Origin: a virus
Lineage: Duplodnaviria; Caudoviricetes
Direction: 5' to 3' (one strand)
DNA: 64,000 bases
Virus record (IMG/VR): IMGVR_UViG_3300017909_001085
Coordinates: 1-64,000 of that record
The first letter of the stretch is position 1, and each line of letters begins with the position of its first letter. A model generated the notes under the pieces. It was not told where the DNA came from. It did not search any database and saw nothing but the letters and a program-made list of their open reading frames with translations. A program made the position numbers and the translations under genes. Positions 31,731 through 42,075 of this stretch are shown here, one piece after another.

Positions 31731-31759
31731 AATATAATCTTAGAACGGTGTTTTGTCAA
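31731..31759 (-). promoter_or_regulatory. Sigma70-type promoter for HTH gene
   Basis: TTGACA-N17-TATATT, -35 inside end of cobS. Confidence 0.65.
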
Positions 31760-32894
31760 CACTTGTTTCGGGTTCAGTAACACTTTCACCGAAATCAGTC
31801 TCGACTGCCTGCTCATCGACTTTCGTATAAAGGTCGATGAATGCAGACTTGGTCTCATCATCAAAACGATTGATACACATTTGTATCGCCTTCATTCTAT
31901 CACCGAACACGGCATATGCTTTGACAATGTGGACTAGACGCCTCGTAGCGATAATCTCATCGATACCACCATCGAGGAAAGTCTTTCTGATAATATCTGC
32001 CCACTTGGTCAGTTTATCAGCAAAATCATCATCTGGTTTACCAACAGAGGTCAACTCTTTATTGATGATTTTTTTCTCTACTGCAACGGCAGGATAATCC
32101 TGTTCGATACAGATTGGGAAACGCTCAAGGAACGCTTCGTTGAGAATATTAGTACCGATGAAACGACCGTCATCAGAACCTTTACCTTTAGTGTTTGCAG
32201 TAGCAACAATCTGAAACCCAGGAGCAGGTTGTACATACTGATTGATTTTCTTCAGTAGAATACCTTTACCTTCGAGGATTGGTTGCAAACACATAATCTT
32301 GTTTGACGCAAGGTCAATCTCATCAAGAAGCAGGACACCGCCTTGCTTCATTGCTTGAATAACTGGACCATCGAAAAAGACAGTCTCGCCATCAACAAGA
32401 CGATAACCACCGAGCAAATCATCTTCATCAGTTTCGATGGTAATGTTCACACGGAAAAACTCACGCTTCAGTTGGGCGCAAATCTGTTCGACCATCATGG
32501 TCTTACCGTTACCTGACAGACCAGTGATGAATACAGGATAGAACATTTTCGACTTGATAATGTTCTTTACATCACTGAACTGACCGAACGGTACATAGTT
32601 GTCATACACACTTGGTATCAAATTTGTCACCGTACTGTCTAAGACTGCCAACTTCTTCTTCGGCAGTTCTACTACTTCAGCAACTTCTTGTTGCTGTACT
32701 GGAGCAAGGTTTGAATTCGCAAACAACGAATACAGACCATTGCCAAGTTTGAACTCATCAGATTTTACAATCCATGAGGGAGCATATTTCATGCCCACTG
32801 AATTCGCAACTTCGACAAGTTCTGCACGACTGAATTCAGTCTGCTTCGGGAACATTGCTGTTGCGGCATTCAGGAAAGTATCACGCTTATTCAT
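31740..32894 (-). CDS. cobS: CobS-like/MoxR AAA+ ATPase
   Basis: GLSGNGKT, ETDEDDLLGG, LLLDEID, ANTKGKGSDDGRF, NEAFLERF. Confidence 0.9.
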   Translation of the reverse strand: MNKRDTFLNAATAMFPKQTEFSRAELVEVANSVGMKYAPSWIVKSDEFKLGNGLYSLFANSNLAPVQQQEVAEVVELPKKKLAVLDSTVTNLIPSVYDNYVPFGQFSDVKNIIKSKMFYPVFITGLSGNGKTMMVEQICAQLKREFFRVNITIETDEDDLLGGYRLVDGETVFFDGPVIQAMKQGGVLLLDEIDLASNKIMCLQPILEGKGILLKKINQYVQPAPGFQIVATANTKGKGSDDGRFIGTNILNEAFLERFPICIEQDYPAVAVEKKIINKELTSVGKPDDDFADKLTKWADIIRKTFLDGGIDEIIATRRLVHIVKAYAVFGDRMKAIQMCINRFDDETKSAFIDLYTKVDEQAVETDFGESVTEPETSVDKTPF

Positions 32895-32970: not shown

Positions 32971-35244
32971 TTATGCGGCAATTTTTTCGATAAATTTGCT
33001 CAAGATTGCTCTGTTTTGCAACTTACCTTTCGCCGCTTTCTTGAATGCTGTAGTCAGTTTTTGCTTCGAAGCACCAACCTCAACATCAAGACCTTCATCG
33101 TCTACCTCAAGTGTCTTACCACCTTTGAGAATATACAGTTCATCAAGACCGCTGATTTTTGACACCGCACTCTTTTCTTTATTGAATTGCTTCTTCCAGT
33201 TCTCAAGTTCTACCCAAGCACTGGCGGCAGAAGAACCTGGTGTTTCAATATACTTGTTGAATGCATACTGAACATCAGAACGACCACTCGCAAGGAAGAA
33301 CCCCATAGTATTGAACCCGGTGCTTGCTTTAAGAGACATGTATAATGCTTTTGTCAAATCGCCACTATAATAATCGCTTGACTGACTTTTGATAGTCACA
33401 TTCTTAGATTTGTCACGGATGTAGAAGACACCTCTGGTGCTGATATCTGCTTCAGTTGAGTAGTACTCTTCACCATTGTATTTTTTGTCATACCCGATAA
33501 CTCCACTAGGTTTGTGACTTGAACCGTCTGTCAAGAAACATACGTTCATGACTTGGGCGCCAGTTGTCTTTTGAAACTTTTCAACCATCTTATGAGCAAC
33601 AATAACTGCGGCATCAAGTGGAGTACCACCAAGGTAGTATTTACGAGGCAGACCCATGTAAGCAAAGTCACCGTACCCATACTTTCTTGACCACATATGA
33701 GATAGTGCTACGCAAATCTCAACTGCTTGATTGAACTGCACTGTAGTCATTTTTGGACCAAACAGTTCTAACATAGTCACGCCTTTGACATTGAACTCAT
33801 TCAGATTAGTTGATTGTAAATCTTCTAAAGGTGTATTCACTGTTGAATGACGCTTGGCATATTCAGAAGAGAATGCATAAGCGGCGAAAGGTATTTGTGC
33901 TTTCTTACAGAACAATGCGAGACAAAGCAACTGCTCCATAGTACCTTTCATATTATCTGACATCGAACCAGACCAGTCAATAAAGAACATCATACCGTGG
34001 TTCTTACCATTCGGAAGATTAGTCTTTTTCATGAAGATATCTTCATTGTACTTGTATGAGTAAAGCAGATTTGAATTGATAACACCAGTCTTAGTAGTAT
34101 TTGCTCTGGCATAGATATCTGCCGCTTTCTTCATTTCAAATTCTTTATGAAGATAAGCAATCACTTTCTCATTTTTCTTTTTGAATTCTTTTGCGTTCTT
34201 AATGAGTTTCTCTTGAACGTCACTGACAGTCCAGTATTCCATCAGTTCTTTTCTAACTTCTGAAAAAGGAACTACAATCTTTTCGAAGTTGATAGTCTTC
34301 GGAATGTCATAGTACTTAGGAATCAAATCTTCGTTAGTCTCTACTAACTTCTTAGTACTTTTTTGAGATGCTTGGTCAGTGATAGACTTGACACCAGGAG
34401 CAGTACCGTCAGTATTTTCTGCTTTACCATCCATACCTTCTTTTGCTGGAGCAGGTGCTTTAGTCTCGGTCTTGTCTTCGCCATCATCGCCTTCTTCTTC
34501 TGGTGATGAAGCAGACTTACCTTCTTCTTCTGATTGTTCATCAGGAGTACCAGTAACAGCATTCATACCGTTACCTTGACCTTCTTGAGCATCGCCTTCA
34601 GACTGTTCATCATCTTGACCTTGTTCAGACTGAACTGGCATATTGTAAGCAGAAGTATCTTCTTGGTTCTGCTGTTTTTCTTCTAATTCTTTTTCGCAAT
34701 ACTCAAACAACTCTTTAGATAGTTCAATAACTTCTTCGAAAGTCTGAGTAGTCATTGCTCTATCGAAAAACTTCTGCTCAACATCATCGAATGTCAAATC
34801 AATTTGAGTACCGAGTTTTGCTTTCAGATTGAGACGGTCAATCAAAAGCATATCAGTGACAGGAACTTGTGAAGTACCGAAGAAATCTTTTTCTTGTAAC
34901 TGACCGTATGCCTGATAGAAAGGTTTCTTTAGACCAGGATACTTCTTTTGAATAAGACGCTCAATACGGGCATCTTCTACGACATTCACAACTGAATGAA
35001 AATTTTGTGTCTTGATTGGTAAGTTCTCCATACCGTCAAGAGGTGTATAGAGAGCATGAGCAACTTCATGACCAACAAACAAGTCTAGAGTTTTTGCGTC
35101 TAAGTCCTTCATAGTAGGAATACGCAATATACGATTTTTAACATCGAAACTAGCAGTATCGACATTCGCATACTCAACCGTCAAATTCTCTGTCGCTAGT
35201 AGTTTAGCGAGAGCAGACTTGACTTCTGTAATCTTGGTTGGCAT
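32971..35244 (-). CDS. CobT-like protein: N-terminal HExxH domain, acidic linker, C-terminal vWA domain
   Basis: GHEVAHALYT, NVVEDARIE, DWSGSM MIDAS, GGTPL, LTDG; ATG at 35244 behind GAGGTG. Confidence 0.85.
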   Translation of the reverse strand: MPTKITEVKSALAKLLATENLTVEYANVDTASFDVKNRILRIPTMKDLDAKTLDLFVGHEVAHALYTPLDGMENLPIKTQNFHSVVNVVEDARIERLIQKKYPGLKKPFYQAYGQLQEKDFFGTSQVPVTDMLLIDRLNLKAKLGTQIDLTFDDVEQKFFDRAMTTQTFEEVIELSKELFEYCEKELEEKQQNQEDTSAYNMPVQSEQGQDDEQSEGDAQEGQGNGMNAVTGTPDEQSEEEGKSASSPEEEGDDGEDKTETKAPAPAKEGMDGKAENTDGTAPGVKSITDQASQKSTKKLVETNEDLIPKYYDIPKTINFEKIVVPFSEVRKELMEYWTVSDVQEKLIKNAKEFKKKNEKVIAYLHKEFEMKKAADIYARANTTKTGVINSNLLYSYKYNEDIFMKKTNLPNGKNHGMMFFIDWSGSMSDNMKGTMEQLLCLALFCKKAQIPFAAYAFSSEYAKRHSTVNTPLEDLQSTNLNEFNVKGVTMLELFGPKMTTVQFNQAVEICVALSHMWSRKYGYGDFAYMGLPRKYYLGGTPLDAAVIVAHKMVEKFQKTTGAQVMNVCFLTDGSSHKPSGVIGYDKKYNGEEYYSTEADISTRGVFYIRDKSKNVTIKSQSSDYYSGDLTKALYMSLKASTGFNTMGFFLASGRSDVQYAFNKYIETPGSSAASAWVELENWKKQFNKEKSAVSKISGLDELYILKGGKTLEVDDEGLDVEVGASKQKLTTAFKKAAKGKLQNRAILSKFIEKIAA

Positions 35245-35276
35245 TTCAGTCACCTCTTTTCTCATCATCTATAGTC

Positions 35277-35467: not shown

Positions 35468-35497
35468 ACTATAGCATGTAGGAATCTAATTTGTCAA
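35468..35497 (-). promoter_or_regulatory. Sigma70-type early promoter
   Basis: TTGACA-N18-TATAGT with TGn. Confidence 0.7.
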
Positions 35498-35995
35498 GCG
35501 TTTTCTCATAAAAATTTGTATTGTTCTTCTGACTGGTGCGCCAAGATTAACTGAAGTGACAGAGTGTCGCACACCACCTTCTTGAAATATTGCTCTATTA
35601 GGTTGAGGTTGAATTGCCTCTATTGTATCATCACTTTTTTCATACATGAAGTATCCACCATCATCTGCATCTTGTTCATTGAGATAAATTGTAAGTGCCG
35701 CTGAATGATTTCCATCATTATGCCACGGTATGTAACTAAACTGTGTCCAGTAATAAAACATAGGTGTGATATCATAGTGACCAAATTCTTCTTCTACTCT
35801 TGTTTGTAAGTAGTTCACAAGTTTGTCATCAGATATCTCATGTACAAGAACAGTATGACTTGTTCGCACAACATCAGAATCCCAAGATGCATTAGATTTT
35901 AGTGTGCATTCTGTTGAAGTATAAATTTCGTTTGATAGTGAAGTTGCTCTGAAAAATGTATCAGGTTCTAAAAAATTATCTATTAGTATTATCAT
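35486..35995 (-). CDS. 2OG-Fe(II) oxygenase
   Basis: IPWHND, YLN...GGYF, HSVT, RRTIQ. Confidence 0.85.
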   Translation of the reverse strand: MIILIDNFLEPDTFFRATSLSNEIYTSTECTLKSNASWDSDVVRTSHTVLVHEISDDKLVNYLQTRVEEEFGHYDITPMFYYWTQFSYIPWHNDGNHSAALTIYLNEQDADDGGYFMYEKSDDTIEAIQPQPNRAIFQEGGVRHSVTSVNLGAPVRRTIQIFMRKRLTN

Positions 35996-36663
35996 CTCTT
36001 CATAATAGTTACATAGTATCTAAAATCATCATATCTAGATATTTTTGAACCTACACTTGCATATGGTATAGACGATGACCCGTCTGCAAAGTTTTCTAAC
36101 TTCTTAATACCACCTGCTACATGTGCAGTTATATCTGCATTATACAATTTTTTGAGACCATGTACTCTTTCTAAAATTTCAATAAAATTATTATATTCAC
36201 TTTCATGAGTTGAGTTCTGAACTATACACAAGATACCATCATCTGCTAGTGCTTGTGATAATCTAAGTAACAAAACACTCTTATTATCATATTGGTCAAA
36301 CGCATCGATAGATATAATTAGATTTGCGTCTTTCTGCTTTGATAAAATAAAATCTTTATAAAAAGAGATACCAGAGTGTCTATCTTTACATGCTTCAAGC
36401 ATGTTTTGGTCACTATTGTATCCTATACATTTTTTGAAGTTGTACTCACCTTTGAGACATGCTAGACCATATCCAAGACCACAGTTGATATCCATTGCTG
36501 TGATTTCAGAATGATTTGTTAAATAATCTTTGATAAAGTAACGATATGTTTGATATGAGTATTTTTCTATACTACACATCTCATCATAATCTTTTTGACC
36601 CCAATCTTCGAATTCGACTGGTACGTTACTAAAGATGTTTTTTGAATACGAATATTGGTTCAT
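35992..36663 (-). CDS. Class I SAM-dependent methyltransferase-like protein
   Basis: MDINCGLGYG motif I variant, L..DGIL; some canonical residues altered. Confidence 0.6.
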   Translation of the reverse strand: MNQYSYSKNIFSNVPVEFEDWGQKDYDEMCSIEKYSYQTYRYFIKDYLTNHSEITAMDINCGLGYGLACLKGEYNFKKCIGYNSDQNMLEACKDRHSGISFYKDFILSKQKDANLIISIDAFDQYDNKSVLLLRLSQALADDGILCIVQNSTHESEYNNFIEILERVHGLKKLYNADITAHVAGGIKKLENFADGSSSIPYASVGSKISRYDDFRYYVTIMKR

Positions 36664-38188
36664 ACTTTAACCAGATACCATTCACTTTGCAAAAATTCTT
36701 TGCTCGTGGTTTACCTGTCTCCTCATCAACTCTGTTACCGCCTGGCATCTGAGCGAGTGCCATCTTTAATGTAGTCACATACTCAAATCCAAGTTCTTTA
36801 CAGATACGAATGCTATCACCCTCAAGTGGCAACATCTCATTACCGAATTTTGCATCTGCAATATTCCATAGTAAGTATCTGTCGTTCTTTAAGTATTTAT
36901 ATGCATTTGTAAGTGTAGGTCTAAGAAAACCTTCTACCCACGTTTCATATTGATTGAATTTCTTGTACGATTGTTCCTCGTCATCAGAATACGCCTCTTT
37001 CGCAAAGTACGGTGGTGATGTGAAGACGAGGTCAAGGGTTTCATTCTCACATGAGAAATCTTCTGAACCGCATTGGTGTATTTCGTATGTGTTTGTATGC
37101 GGAAATAGACCTGTTCCTCTGTAAGTTTTCTCATTGAAAAACCTAGCGAGTTCATCATACTTTGTGCTTTTGGTACCGTCTTCTCTAATAACTGTATGGT
37201 CTGTATTAGGGTCGGTGCCAATATAGTGTATATTACGGTCGTCACTAACAGACATAGCACCGAGAATACGACCACCCCAACCAGCAGAGGGATCCCAAAT
37301 ACGAATAGTAGACTGTTCTTTGAAATGTTCAGTATATTTCTCATACAGATATTTAGCAGTCAGAGGCGGGAAATTAACAGCATATTGACACCATGATATA
37401 CGAAAGGGTTTGAACCCTAACGGAAAAATCTTCTGACCTTTTTTGAACAACATAATCTGATATACATCACAATCGTCTTTCATATTGACTTTGCAATTAT
37501 CAGGTATGTCTAGTTGCTCAATCTCTTCTCTAGTAACTTGCGCCCACTGTACGTTACGCAACTTGTCATCATAACCTGTGTACTCTTGTTCTTTATCAGG
37601 TTTTAACCAATAATCATGGGTATCATATTCTCTAGCATTATGCTCAAACCAACTGATAAAACTATTGCCATCACTAACCGTGTGTCGCTTAGTGCCAAAC
37701 TCCAAGAGTTCTTCTTTTTTAATAGGATTAGAATAGTGATAAAAACTATCACGCTTAAAATGCCTGTGACCATATGTGTATACCTTCTGAAACAAATCTT
37801 CATCTACGAAATGGTCATAGATAGACTTTGCTTTATTTATGTCATTATACACAATCTTCGTTTTCATCATTGTAGGAAACCACTGATTAGCGGCATTACC
37901 TACAACTGATGTGTTACGAATAACATCACACTTACCTGTCTCTTCATCAAGACACTCAAACTCATGAACAGGAAAACTTGACATCTGATTGAACTGGTCA
38001 ATAATCTTATCTTCTGACCAACCAACTCTTGGTGGTAGACCTAGTTCATCCCATGAGTATGCTACTTCTTTTCGCATATCACGCAACCATTGTCTAAATT
38101 CTTCATCTGACATCCACAAGACTTCTTCAAATGTCTTGTTTACTTCATGCTCTAACAGATAACTGTTTCGCTCATAAAAATGCTTCAC
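36629..38188 (-). CDS. Amino (N4C/N6A)-type DNA methyltransferase with long N-terminal extension
   Basis: WDPSAGWGGR motif I followed by DLVFTSPPY motif IV. Confidence 0.8.
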   Translation of the reverse strand: MKHFYERNSYLLEHEVNKTFEEVLWMSDEEFRQWLRDMRKEVAYSWDELGLPPRVGWSEDKIIDQFNQMSSFPVHEFECLDEETGKCDVIRNTSVVGNAANQWFPTMMKTKIVYNDINKAKSIYDHFVDEDLFQKVYTYGHRHFKRDSFYHYSNPIKKEELLEFGTKRHTVSDGNSFISWFEHNAREYDTHDYWLKPDKEQEYTGYDDKLRNVQWAQVTREEIEQLDIPDNCKVNMKDDCDVYQIMLFKKGQKIFPLGFKPFRISWCQYAVNFPPLTAKYLYEKYTEHFKEQSTIRIWDPSAGWGGRILGAMSVSDDRNIHYIGTDPNTDHTVIREDGTKSTKYDELARFFNEKTYRGTGLFPHTNTYEIHQCGSEDFSCENETLDLVFTSPPYFAKEAYSDDEEQSYKKFNQYETWVEGFLRPTLTNAYKYLKNDRYLLWNIADAKFGNEMLPLEGDSIRICKELGFEYVTTLKMALAQMPGGNRVDEETGKPRAKNFCKVNGIWLKYEPIFVFKKHL

Positions 38189-38412
38189 TCAATAACCTCA
38201 ACTTCACTTTCTGTTTCTATTACTACTCTCGCACCGCAAGATAGAATAGGTTTCTCATTACCACCATATCGAACTACACTGTCGCCATGTATCTTTACAG
38301 CATGACAGTATGTGTTTGAGCGACCTTGCTTTATTGTAATAACAGGTTCATTTGTACCATGCTTCTTATTCGCTCTAATCTTATGCTGGTTTACATGTAT
38401 ATAGGTTTTCAT
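38185..38412 (-). CDS. Conserved small phage protein
   Basis: IHVNQHKIRAN...LSCGARVVIET. Confidence 0.65.
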   Translation of the reverse strand: MKTYIHVNQHKIRANKKHGTNEPVITIKQGRSNTYCHAVKIHGDSVVRYGGNEKPILSCGARVVIETESEVEVIE

Positions 38413-38422
38413 ATTACTCTCA

Positions 38423-38980
38423 CTATAGCATTATTGGACTGGTTTTGTCAAATACTAAATCAAAACTTTTCCATGTTAATGTCATTCGACAATTGTTTTT
38501 TACCGATGTTGACAGTCCTCGATGCGGCATCACAGAACTAAAAATCACAACTCGTCCCGGAACAAAGTCAACTACACCCATCTGAGTTTCAAATCCTCTA
38601 ATACCTTCATGATGATAATTTACCATGTAAAGTATCGTATAGTTCTCATCGAGGTTTTTTGTTCGATGTCTACTGTCAATGTGCATAGAACCATCTAGTT
38701 CATATGTCTGTCCATTGATATAGACATGTTGTTTATCTAAGTCTTTTTCTTTGACTTCAAACTTATAATATTCTTTAATTTTCTGAAAAATAAATTGTTG
38801 GTCAGGACAATCTAAAATATGAGTGTAATCATTCAATCTTGTGCTACACCAAAATATTGCATCATCTGGATTGTTTGACACATTACCATAGTAGAATAAA
38901 TTATCATGATACTTTGTTGCTACTCTTGCTACAAAATCATCATCAAACAAATTATCAACATAATCTATTCTTTTCATCAT
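38423..38980 (-). CDS. 2OG-Fe(II) oxygenase
   Basis: YINGQT, HID, PGRVVIF, PHRG, RMTL. Confidence 0.8.
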   Translation of the reverse strand: MMKRIDYVDNLFDDDFVARVATKYHDNLFYYGNVSNNPDDAIFWCSTRLNDYTHILDCPDQQFIFQKIKEYYKFEVKEKDLDKQHVYINGQTYELDGSMHIDSRHRTKNLDENYTILYMVNYHHEGIRGFETQMGVVDFVPGRVVIFSSVMPHRGLSTSVKNNCRMTLTWKSFDLVFDKTSPIML

Positions 38981-39744
38981 GCCGCTACATTCCAGAATAA
39001 ATTGAGTTTACTTCTATCCATGTTTTCTTGTATCACTTTCCATGCTTTAGCATCATACTCAGGCGCACTTGGAAACGGTGGTGCTTCACTTTCTTTGACA
39101 GGTTTATCGAATTTATACGGTGATACCCACAACTTCGCACGCCCTTGTTGTCTTTCATCTAATTTATGTCCTGTCTGTATCACATGCACTTCTGCTTCTG
39201 GGAATGCAAGTTGCAACCCTCGGTTCAGAGTTCCTGATGACCCTACTGTCCAGATTACTTCTGGCATAACATCTAGCGACTGCGCTACTTTCACTATACT
39301 TCCTAGAACCCAATCGTGTTCTAGTCCTAAAGGCAACGTCCTTCGGGTTTGTGGACTCTCTCTGCGATATTGCTCTGCTTTTGACAGAGTGACATTTAAC
39401 ATACCCATCTTTACCCATTCAATACGACCTCCATACTCCATGTATTTCTGTTGATGCCATGTGGGTTCTTTTCTATCTGCCCAAAAACAAGTTGATTTCT
39501 TACCGTACTTTTGACAAACATATGCTAACGAGATTGGTCCCCATCCGACTTTGTTTGAACCTCCAAAGACCCACTCTTCACAGTCTGTGTCTCTGATAAG
39601 TTTATCGATGAACCTGATTTTGCTTCCTGCAGGAAGTACATCATCACGCACCACAATAACATCATCATGATTGACAAGCATAGGCGGGTCGTAAGGGTCA
39701 GACCAGTCACTTACTAACTCTAAATAATCTTCTGCAACTATCAT
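38977..39744 (-). CDS. Fold-type II PLP-dependent enzyme (D-cysteine desulfhydrase/ACC deaminase-like)
   Basis: VVRDD..AGSK.R Schiff-base Lys context, VGSSGT phosphate loop, YDAKAW, FWNV. Confidence 0.8.
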   Translation of the reverse strand: MIVAEDYLELVSDWSDPYDPPMLVNHDDVIVVRDDVLPAGSKIRFIDKLIRDTDCEEWVFGGSNKVGWGPISLAYVCQKYGKKSTCFWADRKEPTWHQQKYMEYGGRIEWVKMGMLNVTLSKAEQYRRESPQTRRTLPLGLEHDWVLGSIVKVAQSLDVMPEVIWTVGSSGTLNRGLQLAFPEAEVHVIQTGHKLDERQQGRAKLWVSPYKFDKPVKESEAPPFPSAPEYDAKAWKVIQENMDRSKLNLFWNVAA

Positions 39745-40849
39745 TCGCTTCTATATCCACTACTAAATGTATTCTTGTTTCATCACCATTGTTAATCGCC
39801 ATATGTGGTTTGCGAATATCTAGATACCACAACTCACCTTCTTTCATATTAACAACATGCTTCTCACCATGCATATCCCACGATGTAAACTCCATCTTCG
39901 GATTTGTAATCACTGGAATATGTAGTCTCATAATCTTACCATCTGCAACACCAAGATAAGGGTCAACTTGGTCAGTGTGTCTTTGCAGTTCACCACCGCC
40001 TGGAGCAAGTGACATAAATCTTATTCGTTCAATATTATCTGTAGGTATTCTTGATAGCAAGTCATTTACATACGGAAACTGTTCTCGCAAAGGTGTGTCT
40101 TCACACTCCCACTCTTCCCATGTGTCATTTTCTGCTTTCCATTTCTTGCTCATCTCTACAGGTTTTGCAATAAATGATGGGTCTGGTCTATAACCTCTCA
40201 ATGATATTGCTGACCATGAACCTTTTTTATTGTAATTTGAGTAATGATTAGTGTACTCAAGTGTTATTTTTTCTAGTTCTTTGCGTATAATCGATGTATT
40301 GATAGTGTCAAACATGCATTTACTTATAGAAACCGTCTCAGCGCCGTCTATGGGCGGATGAGAGCGTTCTTCGAATGAAGTGCTAGAATTACGAAAGAAT
40401 ACGCTATATATCTCTGCAAACGTAGTTATTTTACTACCAACATAGTCAAAACCTGCATCTTGTGCAAACTTGACTGCTTTTTCATCTTCTGACCACACAA
40501 ACAACCAGCAGTTTCTATCGCTATAGTGACTGATATAGTTCTTTACATTCTCTGTGTATGCAGATATATTCTGAATTACAACATCACCTGGTTCTTTATA
40601 ACCAATAATAGTCTCACCATGCATTGTAATCTTCGAACGGACTTTTGCTTCAGTGATGTTAATCCAAGCATCACCTGCTTTGCGTAGAGAACCTTTATCT
40701 AAAAAGTCTGCTACATTATTCTTCTTGAACTGTGCAAAAGGACTATCAGTGTATGAGTTGTAATGGTCATACTCTGCAGTAATTTCTTTTAGATAATCTA
40801 ACTGATAACCTTTTTGCCAGTCTTTCATTTCTACTTCTGTTTGTGTCAT
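39707..40849 (-). CDS. Fusion: GNAT-like N-terminal domain + aspartyl/asparaginyl beta-hydroxylase-type oxygenase
   Basis: V..EDEKAVKFAQDAGF resembles GNAT motif B; C-terminal LAPGG..HTD, RLHIP, H...N.G...RIHLVVD AspH signature. Confidence 0.7.
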   Translation of the reverse strand: MTQTEVEMKDWQKGYQLDYLKEITAEYDHYNSYTDSPFAQFKKNNVADFLDKGSLRKAGDAWINITEAKVRSKITMHGETIIGYKEPGDVVIQNISAYTENVKNYISHYSDRNCWLFVWSEDEKAVKFAQDAGFDYVGSKITTFAEIYSVFFRNSSTSFEERSHPPIDGAETVSISKCMFDTINTSIIRKELEKITLEYTNHYSNYNKKGSWSAISLRGYRPDPSFIAKPVEMSKKWKAENDTWEEWECEDTPLREQFPYVNDLLSRIPTDNIERIRFMSLAPGGGELQRHTDQVDPYLGVADGKIMRLHIPVITNPKMEFTSWDMHGEKHVVNMKEGELWYLDIRKPHMAINNGDETRIHLVVDIEANDSCRRLFRVSK

Positions 40850-41439
40850 ATATCTGACCTTTCTTTTACACTATCAAAAAAATCCTCTTCAATAGCAAAA
40901 CTAACTGAACATCTTGGACCCGTAATACTTGGGCAGTGTTTCCACCATTTTGGAATATATATCATATCATTTGGATATAGTGTAAACTCTTCTATCACAT
41001 CATCTTCATCTATTCCTTGCTGAACTTTCCAAAGGGTTTCGCCTTGTATTTGCCATATGTAAGTATGCATATCATCATTATGAAAATTAAGTCCATCACT
41101 TTCTGCAACAAGAGAAACAAATAAATGACAATTTACTCTATGTCTAGTTTTATCAATTAGATGTTTTTCTTCTATAATTTTTCTCACATATGCAACTTGA
41201 GGTATTAACTCTGCATTATGTGTAGCGAAAGAAGGAAATATATTAGTATCATTATCAACTTCAATTTGATTTTGTGATACTAATCTAACTGCACGACCTG
41301 ACTTAGAAATAACTTCTGACCATTCTTTTGAGTTTCTATAATCAACCGATGCCTGAAAATTCTGAACTATGTCAGACCAGTCAAATCGCTCAAACTGCAT
41401 TTGTCCTATCTCGCCAATTTTTGGTAACTCATGCCACAT
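40846..41439 (-). CDS. JmjC/cupin-4-like 2OG oxygenase
   Basis: FHNDD, WQIQG...W, LYPNDMIYIP..W.H, RCSVSF. Confidence 0.8.
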   Translation of the reverse strand: MWHELPKIGEIGQMQFERFDWSDIVQNFQASVDYRNSKEWSEVISKSGRAVRLVSQNQIEVDNDTNIFPSFATHNAELIPQVAYVRKIIEEKHLIDKTRHRVNCHLFVSLVAESDGLNFHNDDMHTYIWQIQGETLWKVQQGIDEDDVIEEFTLYPNDMIYIPKWWKHCPSITGPRCSVSFAIEEDFFDSVKERSDI

Positions 41440-41962
41440 CTGGTAACTTTAACTTTCCCTCTTTAATGAGTTTCTTTATCTTCTTGTCTCTTGCTTTGAT
41501 GCCTCTATCAAGCACCAACTTAGATGCTCTCTGTGTAAAGTCAATACCCATCATGTGGTCCATCTCATGCAAGAATATTCGTGCAGTCAATCCTTCATAT
41601 TTCATTTTTTTGTTCTCACCATTCTCATCATGATATGATACTACGCAAAACTTAGGTCTACGAATAGATAAGAACAAACCAGGCCATGTCAAACAACCTT
41701 CTTTCAGATGTTCAAGTTCAGGACTCATAGTAAGCACTTGTGGGTTGAATACATTTACACGAAAATCATCTTTACCCATAACGAACACTTTAGCATCAAT
41801 ACCAACTTGATTAGCAGACAGACCTACGCCGTTGTAGTGTTTCATATTGAACCACAACTGGTCAGCAAGTTCTTTCGGATCCATAAATGGATTATCAAAA
41901 TCAAATGCCTTTGGTTTGTATAACGCATCATTTGGTGGCGTTAATTCTAAAACTTTACTCAT
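41429..41962 (-). CDS. def: Peptide deformylase
   Basis: GVGLSANQVG, EGCLT, HEMDH; ATG at 41962 (TGATG overlap). Confidence 0.92.
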   Translation of the reverse strand: MSKVLELTPPNDALYKPKAFDFDNPFMDPKELADQLWFNMKHYNGVGLSANQVGIDAKVFVMGKDDFRVNVFNPQVLTMSPELEHLKEGCLTWPGLFLSIRRPKFCVVSYHDENGENKKMKYEGLTARIFLHEMDHMMGIDFTQRASKLVLDRGIKARDKKIKKLIKEGKLKLPDVA

Positions 41963-42075
41963 CAAGATACCTGTACTGCAATATAAAGACAAATAGCAAT
42001 AATAAGTAATTTACCATAGTCTAAATCAAAATCAGTACCTTCACCAATTTTTTCTTTTATCTCACTAAACTTCAT
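41962..42075 (-). CDS. Small membrane peptide (37 aa)
   Basis: Manual translation MKFSEIKEKIGEGTDFDLDYGKLLIIAICLYIAVQVS; AAGGAG SD; fills gap exactly. Confidence 0.55.
   Translation of the reverse strand: MKFSEIKEKIGEGTDFDLDYGKLLIIAICLYIAVQVS

Follow-up and report, generated by a model that had tools for sequence, protein, structure and literature searches.

What do the eight overlapping genes that lie between def and cobS in an uncultured T4-like phage do, and do they do it together? The question is posed by a stretch of 64,000 nucleotides (hereafter the window), the first half of the 125,860-bp IMG/VR virus record IMGVR_UViG_3300017909_001085, which is approximately 70% complete. The major capsid protein of this phage shares 64–67% identity with its counterparts in the OM43 phage Melnitz and in the pelagimyophages HTVC008M and Mosig; we therefore regard the record as that of an uncultured marine T4-like myophage. 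Eight minus-strand open reading frames (ORFs) span positions 35486–41439, bounded by def on one side and by a 765-aa gene and cobS on the other. An earlier note, made from the sequence alone, had read all eight as one pathway, in which an enzyme using S-adenosylmethionine (SAM) installs a group that other enzymes then tailor. Comparative analysis supports such a pathway for three of them: a 519-aa amino-methyltransferase-fold enzyme with an SPPY motif, a fold-type-II pyridoxal phosphate (PLP) enzyme, and a fusion of a GNAT-fold domain with an AspH-type Fe(II)/2-oxoglutarate (2OG) oxygenase (GNAT-AspH). That these three core genes form one enzyme system modifying the phage's own DNA bases beyond methylation is a proposition for which we judge the chances to be about even.

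Coupling of the three core genes

Gene neighbourhoods in IMG/VR were surveyed from two anchors. The PLP-anchored census drew on 374 relatives, the best 80 loci of which (PLP identity of at least 52%) were used, and the methyltransferase-anchored census drew on at least 569 relatives, with 49 loci having a full-length methyltransferase and at least 3.5 kb of upstream sequence. Each locus search covered at most 80 loci, and the contigs are fragments, so partner genes may lie elsewhere. Around the PLP gene, the methyltransferase was present in 71 of 72 testable loci (54–67% identity to the window protein); for the GNAT-AspH fusion the figure was 61 of 70 (43–64% identity), and its gene nearly always overlaps the PLP gene. 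Co-occurrence of the three genes, which the earlier note had put forward as a check, is thus borne out from the side of the PLP gene; the view from the methyltransferase, where it holds only in part, is taken up below.

Fusion proteins couple the same activities covalently. Longer proteins homologous to the PLP enzyme were sought, and four architectures came to light: methyltransferase–(GNAT-like–AspH)–PLP fusions of 994–1141 aa, methyltransferase–PLP fusions of about 680 aa, an AspH–PLP fusion of 547 aa, and proteins of 628–807 aa whose PLP domain interrupts a ParB-methyltransferase between motifs I and IV. On their contigs, two of the four-domain fusions run as ORFs without a break, and one of the two covers GNAT-AspH in its entirety (hhalign E 1e-50). 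Among the proteins with an inserted PLP domain is gp1 of the cultured Erythrobacter phage R6L (vB_EliS-R6L), described in the R6L paper only as a CcrM-like methylase; Microcystis phage Mae-JY30 has the same ParB-methyltransferase in unbroken form, followed by the PLP gene. Methyltransferase–PLP fusions without AspH occur in a Mu-like phage, on a podophage-like contig and in a genomic island beside a Type ISP restriction enzyme. Because several independent fusion orders are found in unrelated viruses, we conclude that the methyltransferase, the PLP enzyme and GNAT-AspH act as one machine, its parts physically and functionally coupled.

The PLP and methyltransferase genes enclose a variable slot of 430–2160 nt, which holds a dCMP deaminase in 38 loci, an 82-aa ORF in 26, assorted 2OG oxygenases, and a PfkB-type sugar-kinase ORF that fills it at L056:10864-11688. 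The dCMP/cytidine deaminase (PF00383; seen at L037:11458-11922 and 37 other loci, and at L097:4682-5227) lies directly upstream of the methyltransferase in these 38 related loci, and one also adjoins the methyltransferase homologue of Vibrio phage 2.058.O, which has no PLP partner; none is encoded in the 125,860-bp record. This linkage could hint at a cytosine target, or could be plain nucleotide-metabolism synteny.

Further neighbours were seen at individual loci. On the podophage-like contig (L093:9005-10973), the methyltransferase–PLP fusion is followed by DUF2924, GATase_4 and GGACT (gamma-glutamyl-amine cyclotransferase-like) proteins, which may represent further amine-tailoring steps. 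A GmrSD_N (DUF262) protein, a type-IV-restriction-like domain adjoining the presumed modification module, separates the GNAT-AspH gene from the PLP gene in one T4-like lineage; in another, it is encoded 4 kb downstream (L013:6628-8001; L017:14160-15602). A lone PLP homologue is located among MORN-repeat genes on a 356,782-bp contig (L015:8001-8768), with a 399-aa N6_N4 methyltransferase 5 kb away, and a four-domain fusion is encoded near a MORN_2 gene (L195); the module apparently extends into very large viruses whose type is unknown. A scan of 185,579 cellular species genomes returned four contigs of metagenome-assembled genomes only.

Folds and catalytic residues of the core enzymes

The C-terminal part of the 519-aa enzyme matches the N6_N4_Mtase family above its Pfam cut-off (Table 1), and the best family matches of the protein are DNA methyltransferases. 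It carries an X-like motif (NFPP), a motif I (DPSAGWGGR) and a motif IV (FTSPPY), the latter two being unchanged across an alignment of 17 homologues; FTSPPY fits what we take to be the pattern of N4-cytosine methylases. With its SAM-binding motif I and catalytic motif IV, the enzyme has a complete amino-methyltransferase core. Its GTG start lines up with the Met of homologues. The protein also has a 260-aa N-terminal extension, conserved in the T4-like form, and a search of the ESM Atlas with the N-terminal 262 residues returned nothing.

The PLP enzyme matches phrog_7093, the same family that is matched full-length by gp52 of phage M6 (2e-159). Aligned with hhalign, the PLP profile and gp52 correspond from end to end (98.2% probability, E 6e-14, 27% identity), and K42 of the PLP enzyme falls on K36 of gp52. 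Both gp52 and gp226 of phage ViI use PLP to decarboxylate amino-acid:thymidine conjugates in DNA, and K36 has been named as the likely Schiff-base lysine of gp52 (Lee et al., PMC8989533). K42 and the SSGT phosphate loop (S169-S170-G171) are invariant among the PLP homologues, and the structural model (mean predicted local distance difference test score, pLDDT, 92) superposes on threonine deaminase, D-Cys desulfhydrase and other fold-II enzymes with TM scores of 0.70–0.76. Sequence comparison makes the PLP enzyme homologous to the DNA-acting decarboxylase M6 gp52, the activity itself being known only for gp52 and gp226. The matches to threonine deaminase and D-Cys desulfhydrase had led us to consider alpha,beta-elimination, which was replaced by decarboxylation after the test of gp52 homology.

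The third core protein, of 380 aa, has the Asp_Arg_Hydrox family at its C-terminus, where an H291-x-D293...H349 triad and the 2OG-binding R359 are invariant in 14 homologues. In its model (pLDDT 89.7), residues ~170–375 match the nucleoside-antibiotic hydroxylase 7v4p, the L-proline cis-4-hydroxylase 4p7x, AspH and the proline 3-hydroxylase 1e5r at Z 14.6–15.6, so that the domain is nearest to hydroxylases of free amino acids. Residues 16–158 match the GNATs 2pc1, 2fia, 8zt3, 3bln and 9mto at Z 9.3–11.2. No GNAT model was matched in a Pfam scan of the protein, and the ESM Atlas offered nothing beyond a GNAT lead below threshold for the N-terminus; comparison with a Pfam-positive stand-alone GNAT that occupies the same slot at locus L125 gave a weak match (hhalign 79.5%, E 1.5e-5). 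The predicted GNAT fold of the N-terminal domain is thus right, while acetyl transfer by it is uncertain.

Proposed reaction and its alternatives

The enzymes of the thymidine hypermodification route were also sought. The earlier note saw no hydroxymethylase, kinase or amino-acid:DNA transferase in the window, and this absence extends to the whole 125,860-bp record (approximately 70% complete), in which no ThyA-type hydroxymethylase, 5-hydroxymethyl-2'-deoxyuridine (5-hmdU) kinase or amino-acid:DNA transferase was found. Neither was a 5-hmdU kinase or amino-acid:DNA transferase detectable in the complete genomes of R6L and Mae-JY30, in a search whose M6 positive control scored 1e-128 to 1e-210. 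With kinase and transferase undetected, the methyltransferase-fold enzyme becomes the only candidate installer of an amino-acid-bearing group; since the only such group of SAM is 3-amino-3-carboxypropyl (acp), that group is presumed to be the one transferred.

Our inference, which covers DNA as target as well as the group attached and the sequence of reactions, runs as follows. The 519-aa enzyme would flip a cytosine or adenine and attach the acp group of SAM to the exocyclic amine, whether in place of a methyl group or alongside one. Decarboxylation by the PLP enzyme would follow and leave an aminopropyl-type cationic side chain, which the AspH/proline-hydroxylase-type oxygenase with its GNAT-fold partner would hydroxylate and perhaps acylate; in the sub-clade of this phage, one more methyl group may come from the 223-aa SAM enzyme. 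This specific sequence, from acp transfer onto the exocyclic amine of C or A in DNA, through decarboxylation of the gp52 type to aminopropyl, to tailoring by the hydroxylase, is offered tentatively and appears possible rather than probable. In its general form, a modification led by the methyltransferase and tailored by the PLP enzyme and oxygenase is the best reading for the three-gene core, and for four genes in the sub-clade. The earlier proposal of a SAM-installed group that is subsequently tailored accordingly survives for the methyltransferase, PLP enzyme and GNAT-AspH, which the fusions and the gp52 homology indicate act together, and falls away as a scheme for all eight genes.

Several observations weigh against a modification beyond methylation. 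The SAM motifs of the 519-aa enzyme are all those of an ordinary N4/N6 methyltransferase, and its more distant relatives in cultured Staphylococcus (Twort-like), Bacteroides and Vibrio phages stand alone, with no PLP partner; the Vibrio phage homologue is annotated as an N4-cytosine methylase and adjoins a dCMP deaminase. Anchored on the methyltransferase, the census shows partly independent assortment: among the 49 loci, 32 encode the PLP enzyme, 37 AspH and 27 both, and 17, in the same syntenic slot, have no PLP gene on the sequenced DNA. These 17 comprise four loci with GNAT-AspH and the methyltransferase, six with a separate AspH and the methyltransferase (a bona fide GNAT being seen where checked, at L125), and seven with the methyltransferase alone. 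On a FastTree tree of 45 methyltransferases, built without bootstrap, partner content shifts at least seven times, and PLP-less enzymes branch from within PLP-linked ones, the path between them in some cases being under 0.1 substitutions per site. Given this near-identity, the methyltransferase very probably performs the same reaction with or without its partners, yielding a product that is viable alone. Partner content that changes in this way is what one would expect around a core installer whose tailoring enzymes are optional, and a product viable on its own fits such an installer and a plain methyltransferase equally well. Among the individual enzymes, the PLP protein scores 17.6 bits against Pfam PALP (PF00291), below the cut-off of 35, which its fused homologue R6L gp1 passes at 40.6 bits; against the sequences of solved structures, the PLP profile gave no significant match and the methyltransferase profile one insignificant match (E 0.63). 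The GNAT-like domain is gapped where the stand-alone GNAT has QGNGVA, the Q/RxxGxG acetyl-CoA loop.

One alternative casts the 519-aa enzyme as a plain N4-cytosine or N6-adenine DNA methyltransferase, with the PLP enzyme and GNAT-AspH as helpers acting on a small molecule in its active site (SAM, S-adenosylhomocysteine or a derived amino acid) and not on a DNA-attached group. The canonical motifs, the many family members that lack a PLP partner, the near-identity of PLP-less and PLP-linked enzymes and the kinship of the oxygenase with hydroxylases of free amino acids all speak for it. Yet the sole characterised homologue of the PLP enzyme acts on DNA-bound amino acids, a methyl group would give the PLP enzyme no substrate, and the four-domain fusions, together with the insertion of a PLP domain inside the methyltransferase, argue for a shared macromolecular substrate. 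We consider this alternative unlikely, though the strongest of the competitors.

A second possibility reverses the order of steps: the PLP enzyme would decarboxylate SAM first, perhaps bound to the methyltransferase, and the methyltransferase-fold enzyme would then transfer the resulting aminopropyl group, as spermidine synthases do. The placement of the inserted PLP domain beside the SAM-binding half of the methyltransferase and the homology of the PLP enzyme to a decarboxylase are in keeping with such an order, which is nonetheless improbable in view of the requirement of gp52 for a DNA-bound substrate, the retention of the same core by PLP-less methyltransferases, and the failure of a Pfam scan to reveal similarity to aminopropyl transferases.

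Slightly more improbable still is a target other than DNA, whether tRNA or rRNA (with a wybutosine- or acp3U-like product), a protein or a metabolite. It is opposed by the fusions to ParB-type DNA-binding domains in siphophages, by the DNA methyltransferases that head the family matches, by the action of the PLP homologue on DNA and by the location of the module among DNA-metabolism genes. In its favour are the automatic name that the Joint Genome Institute (JGI) gives some of the fusions (tRNA N6-adenine methylase), the 260-aa N-terminal domain without assigned function, and the fact that aminocarboxypropyl transfer is, to our knowledge, known so far only on RNA (TYW2, Tsr3, TapT).

Two further schemes fared worse. 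Oxidation of an N-methyl group by AspH, followed by PLP-dependent coupling to an amino acid, was rejected as a general mechanism on account of the AspH-less methyltransferase–PLP pairs, which occur also in complete genomes, and a SAM-degrading anti-restriction module of the T3 type is unlikely, as FTSPPY is invariant and ParB fusions exist.

Neighbouring genes, related systems and significance

The layout of the eight genes agrees with the earlier description of them as mostly overlapping. Counting the junction with def, seven of the eight junctions overlap, by 4–38 nt, and the remaining one is a 10-nt gap, between the 185-aa oxygenase gene and the 75-aa ORF. In order, def shares 11 nt with the JmjC gene, the first of the cluster; JmjC and GNAT-AspH overlap by 4 nt, GNAT-AspH and PLP by 38 nt, PLP and the 185-aa oxygenase by 4 nt, the 75-aa ORF and the methyltransferase by 4 nt, the methyltransferase and the 223-aa gene by 35 nt, and the 223-aa and 169-aa genes by 4 nt. 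The earlier domain calls also hold, four (JmjC_2, Asp_Arg_Hydrox, N6_N4_Mtase and 2OG-FeII_Oxy_3) exceeding their Pfam cut-offs, and the PLP enzyme, the GNAT domain and the second SAM enzyme being recognised by other evidence. Of the cobT/cobS block placed beside the cluster, cobS is confirmed by its AAA_5 and CbbQ_C domains, while the name cobT is not upheld, the 765-aa protein having no Pfam match at E 0.01. Genes resembling gp46 and gp47 are located upstream of the cluster. A 182-aa ORF on the strand opposite the PLP gene can probably be dismissed as a shadow ORF.

Table 1. Genes of the 35486–41439 stretch and its flanks, with positions in the window
Product	Positions	Strand	Evidence	Assignment
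JmjC/cupin oxygenase, 197 aa	40846–41439	-	PF08007 (JmjC_2) 37 bits	variable neighbour
GNAT-fold + AspH-type Fe(II)/2OG oxygenase fusion, 380 aa	39707–40849	-	PF05118 (Asp_Arg_Hydrox) 60.6 bits, cut-off 22.6, C-terminal; model	core but optional, putative tailoring enzyme
Fold-type-II PLP enzyme, 255 aa	38977–39744	-	phrog_7093 8.4e-35; PALP below cut-off	core, putative tailoring enzyme
2OG-oxygenase-like protein, 185 aa	38423–38980	-	phrog_274 2.4e-18	one of the alternative PLP–methyltransferase inserts
75-aa protein	38185–38412	-	phrog_8676 7e-21	not module-specific
SPPY amino-methyltransferase-fold enzyme, 519 aa	36629–38188	-	PF01555 (N6_N4_Mtase) 30.4 bits, cut-off 26.7, residues 386–517; motifs	constant core, presumed installer
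Class-I SAM methyltransferase-like protein, 223 aa	35992–36663	-	sub-threshold Pfam; DxNCGxGxG	sub-clade accessory
Prolyl-hydroxylase-type 2OG-Fe(II) oxygenase, 169 aa	35486–35995	-	PF13640 (2OG-FeII_Oxy_3) 33.8 bits	variable neighbour
def	41429–41992			flanking gene
765-aa protein ('cobT')	32971–35268			flanking gene
cobS	31740–32894		AAA_5/CbbQ_C	flanking gene
182-aa ORF antisense to PLP gene	38906–39454	+		probable shadow ORF

Outside the core, the 223-aa protein matches Methyltransf_23, Methyltransf_11 and Methyltransf_31 below their cut-offs and has a conserved DxNCGxGxG; all 11 of its homologues in IMG/VR lie directly downstream of a methyltransferase homologue, and none was found among cultured phages. 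It is a sub-clade-specific accessory of the module. The other four genes (JmjC, 185-aa, 169-aa and 75-aa) are restricted to the closest relatives among the PLP-anchored loci. JmjC homologues (29–81% identity) occur only in loci with a PLP identity of at least 63%, with weak matches in the cyanophages Syn9 and Syn10, neither of which matched the PLP or GNAT-AspH queries. The 185-aa protein has no Pfam match; its cluster was found in 20 loci, others having a dCMP deaminase or other ORFs at that position, and homologues of the 169-aa oxygenase are limited to three related loci. An HxD...H pattern is visible in the JmjC, 185-aa and 169-aa proteins. Against cultured phages, megablast of the region gave no match, and sensitive blastn picked up the 75-aa gene alone, which shares 77% DNA identity with Melnitz phages; these phages, for their part, were not hit by the PLP, methyltransferase or GNAT-AspH queries. 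JmjC, the 185-aa and 169-aa oxygenases and the 75-aa protein are thus variable neighbours with no demonstrated link to the module, and the reading of all eight genes as one pathway contracts to the GNAT-AspH/PLP/methyltransferase core.

Among characterised systems, the nearest parallel is the thymidine hypermodification of M6, ViI and PaMx11 (Lee et al., NAR 2021, PMC8989533). Shared with it are a homologous fold-II PLP enzyme (phrog_7093), amino-acid-type tailoring enzymes adjoining the PLP gene (an acetyltransferase-fold domain and oxygenases), combinatorial partners and fusions of pathway enzymes, and a substrate that would here also be post-replicative phage DNA. In contrast to those phages, no dUMP hydroxymethylase, 5-hmdU DNA kinase or amino-acid:DNA transferase was detected here, and the constant partner is an amino-methyltransferase-fold enzyme; the attachment would therefore be to the exocyclic amine of C or A, with SAM as the probable donor, rather than of a free amino acid to 5-hmdU.

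The proposed logic also recalls the wybutosine pathway of tRNA-Phe, in which TYW2 transfers acp from SAM, TYW5, a JmjC enzyme, hydroxylates it, and TYW4 carries out methylation and methoxycarbonylation: common to both would be acp transfer by a methyltransferase-fold enzyme, 2OG-dependent hydroxylation, and further SAM-dependent or N-capping steps. No sequence relationship was found, however, and the wybutosine pathway acts on RNA and involves no PLP decarboxylation. With the ParB-fused and stand-alone N4/N6 methyltransferases of phages (PF01555; phrog_498, phrog_67, phrog_12517), the 519-aa enzyme shares motif I, motif IV of the form [ST][SC]PPY and the same PHROGs; it differs from them in its coupling or fusion to a PLP decarboxylase homologue and a hydroxylase and, in the T4-like form, in its 260-aa N-terminal extension. 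Mom of phage Mu, an iron-dependent GNAT-fold enzyme that makes N6-carbamoylmethyl-adenine for anti-restriction, resembles the module in its GNAT-fold domain, iron-dependent chemistry and, as proposed here, exocyclic-amine target on a DNA base; no similarity in sequence was seen, and Mom, unlike the module, has neither a methyltransferase nor a PLP partner. A full-text literature search found no description of methyltransferase–PLP coupling.

All phage DNA hypermodifications that we know of start from 5-hydroxymethyl pyrimidines, 7-deazaguanine or C5 chemistry. If the proposed reading is true, the module would represent a new entry point, the exocyclic amine, and possibly a new use of SAM as a donor on DNA; its product would be the first DNA base of amino-acid or polyamine-like kind derived from SAM, reached by a path other than that through 5-hmdU. 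Such a base would be widespread among T4-like phages of aquatic habitats, IMG/VR containing at least 374 loci with the PLP gene and at least 569 with the methyltransferase. The module is plentiful in uncultured T4-like phages of marine and fresh waters and is found also in siphophages, a Mu-like phage and genomic islands. The cultured carriers of the minimal methyltransferase–PLP pair, Erythrobacter phage R6L and Microcystis phage Mae-JY30, make the question of modification directly testable, and the enzymes could serve as site-specific DNA labelling tools. In the environment, the module may shape restriction evasion by these phages and sequencing bias in the viromes in which they are sampled.

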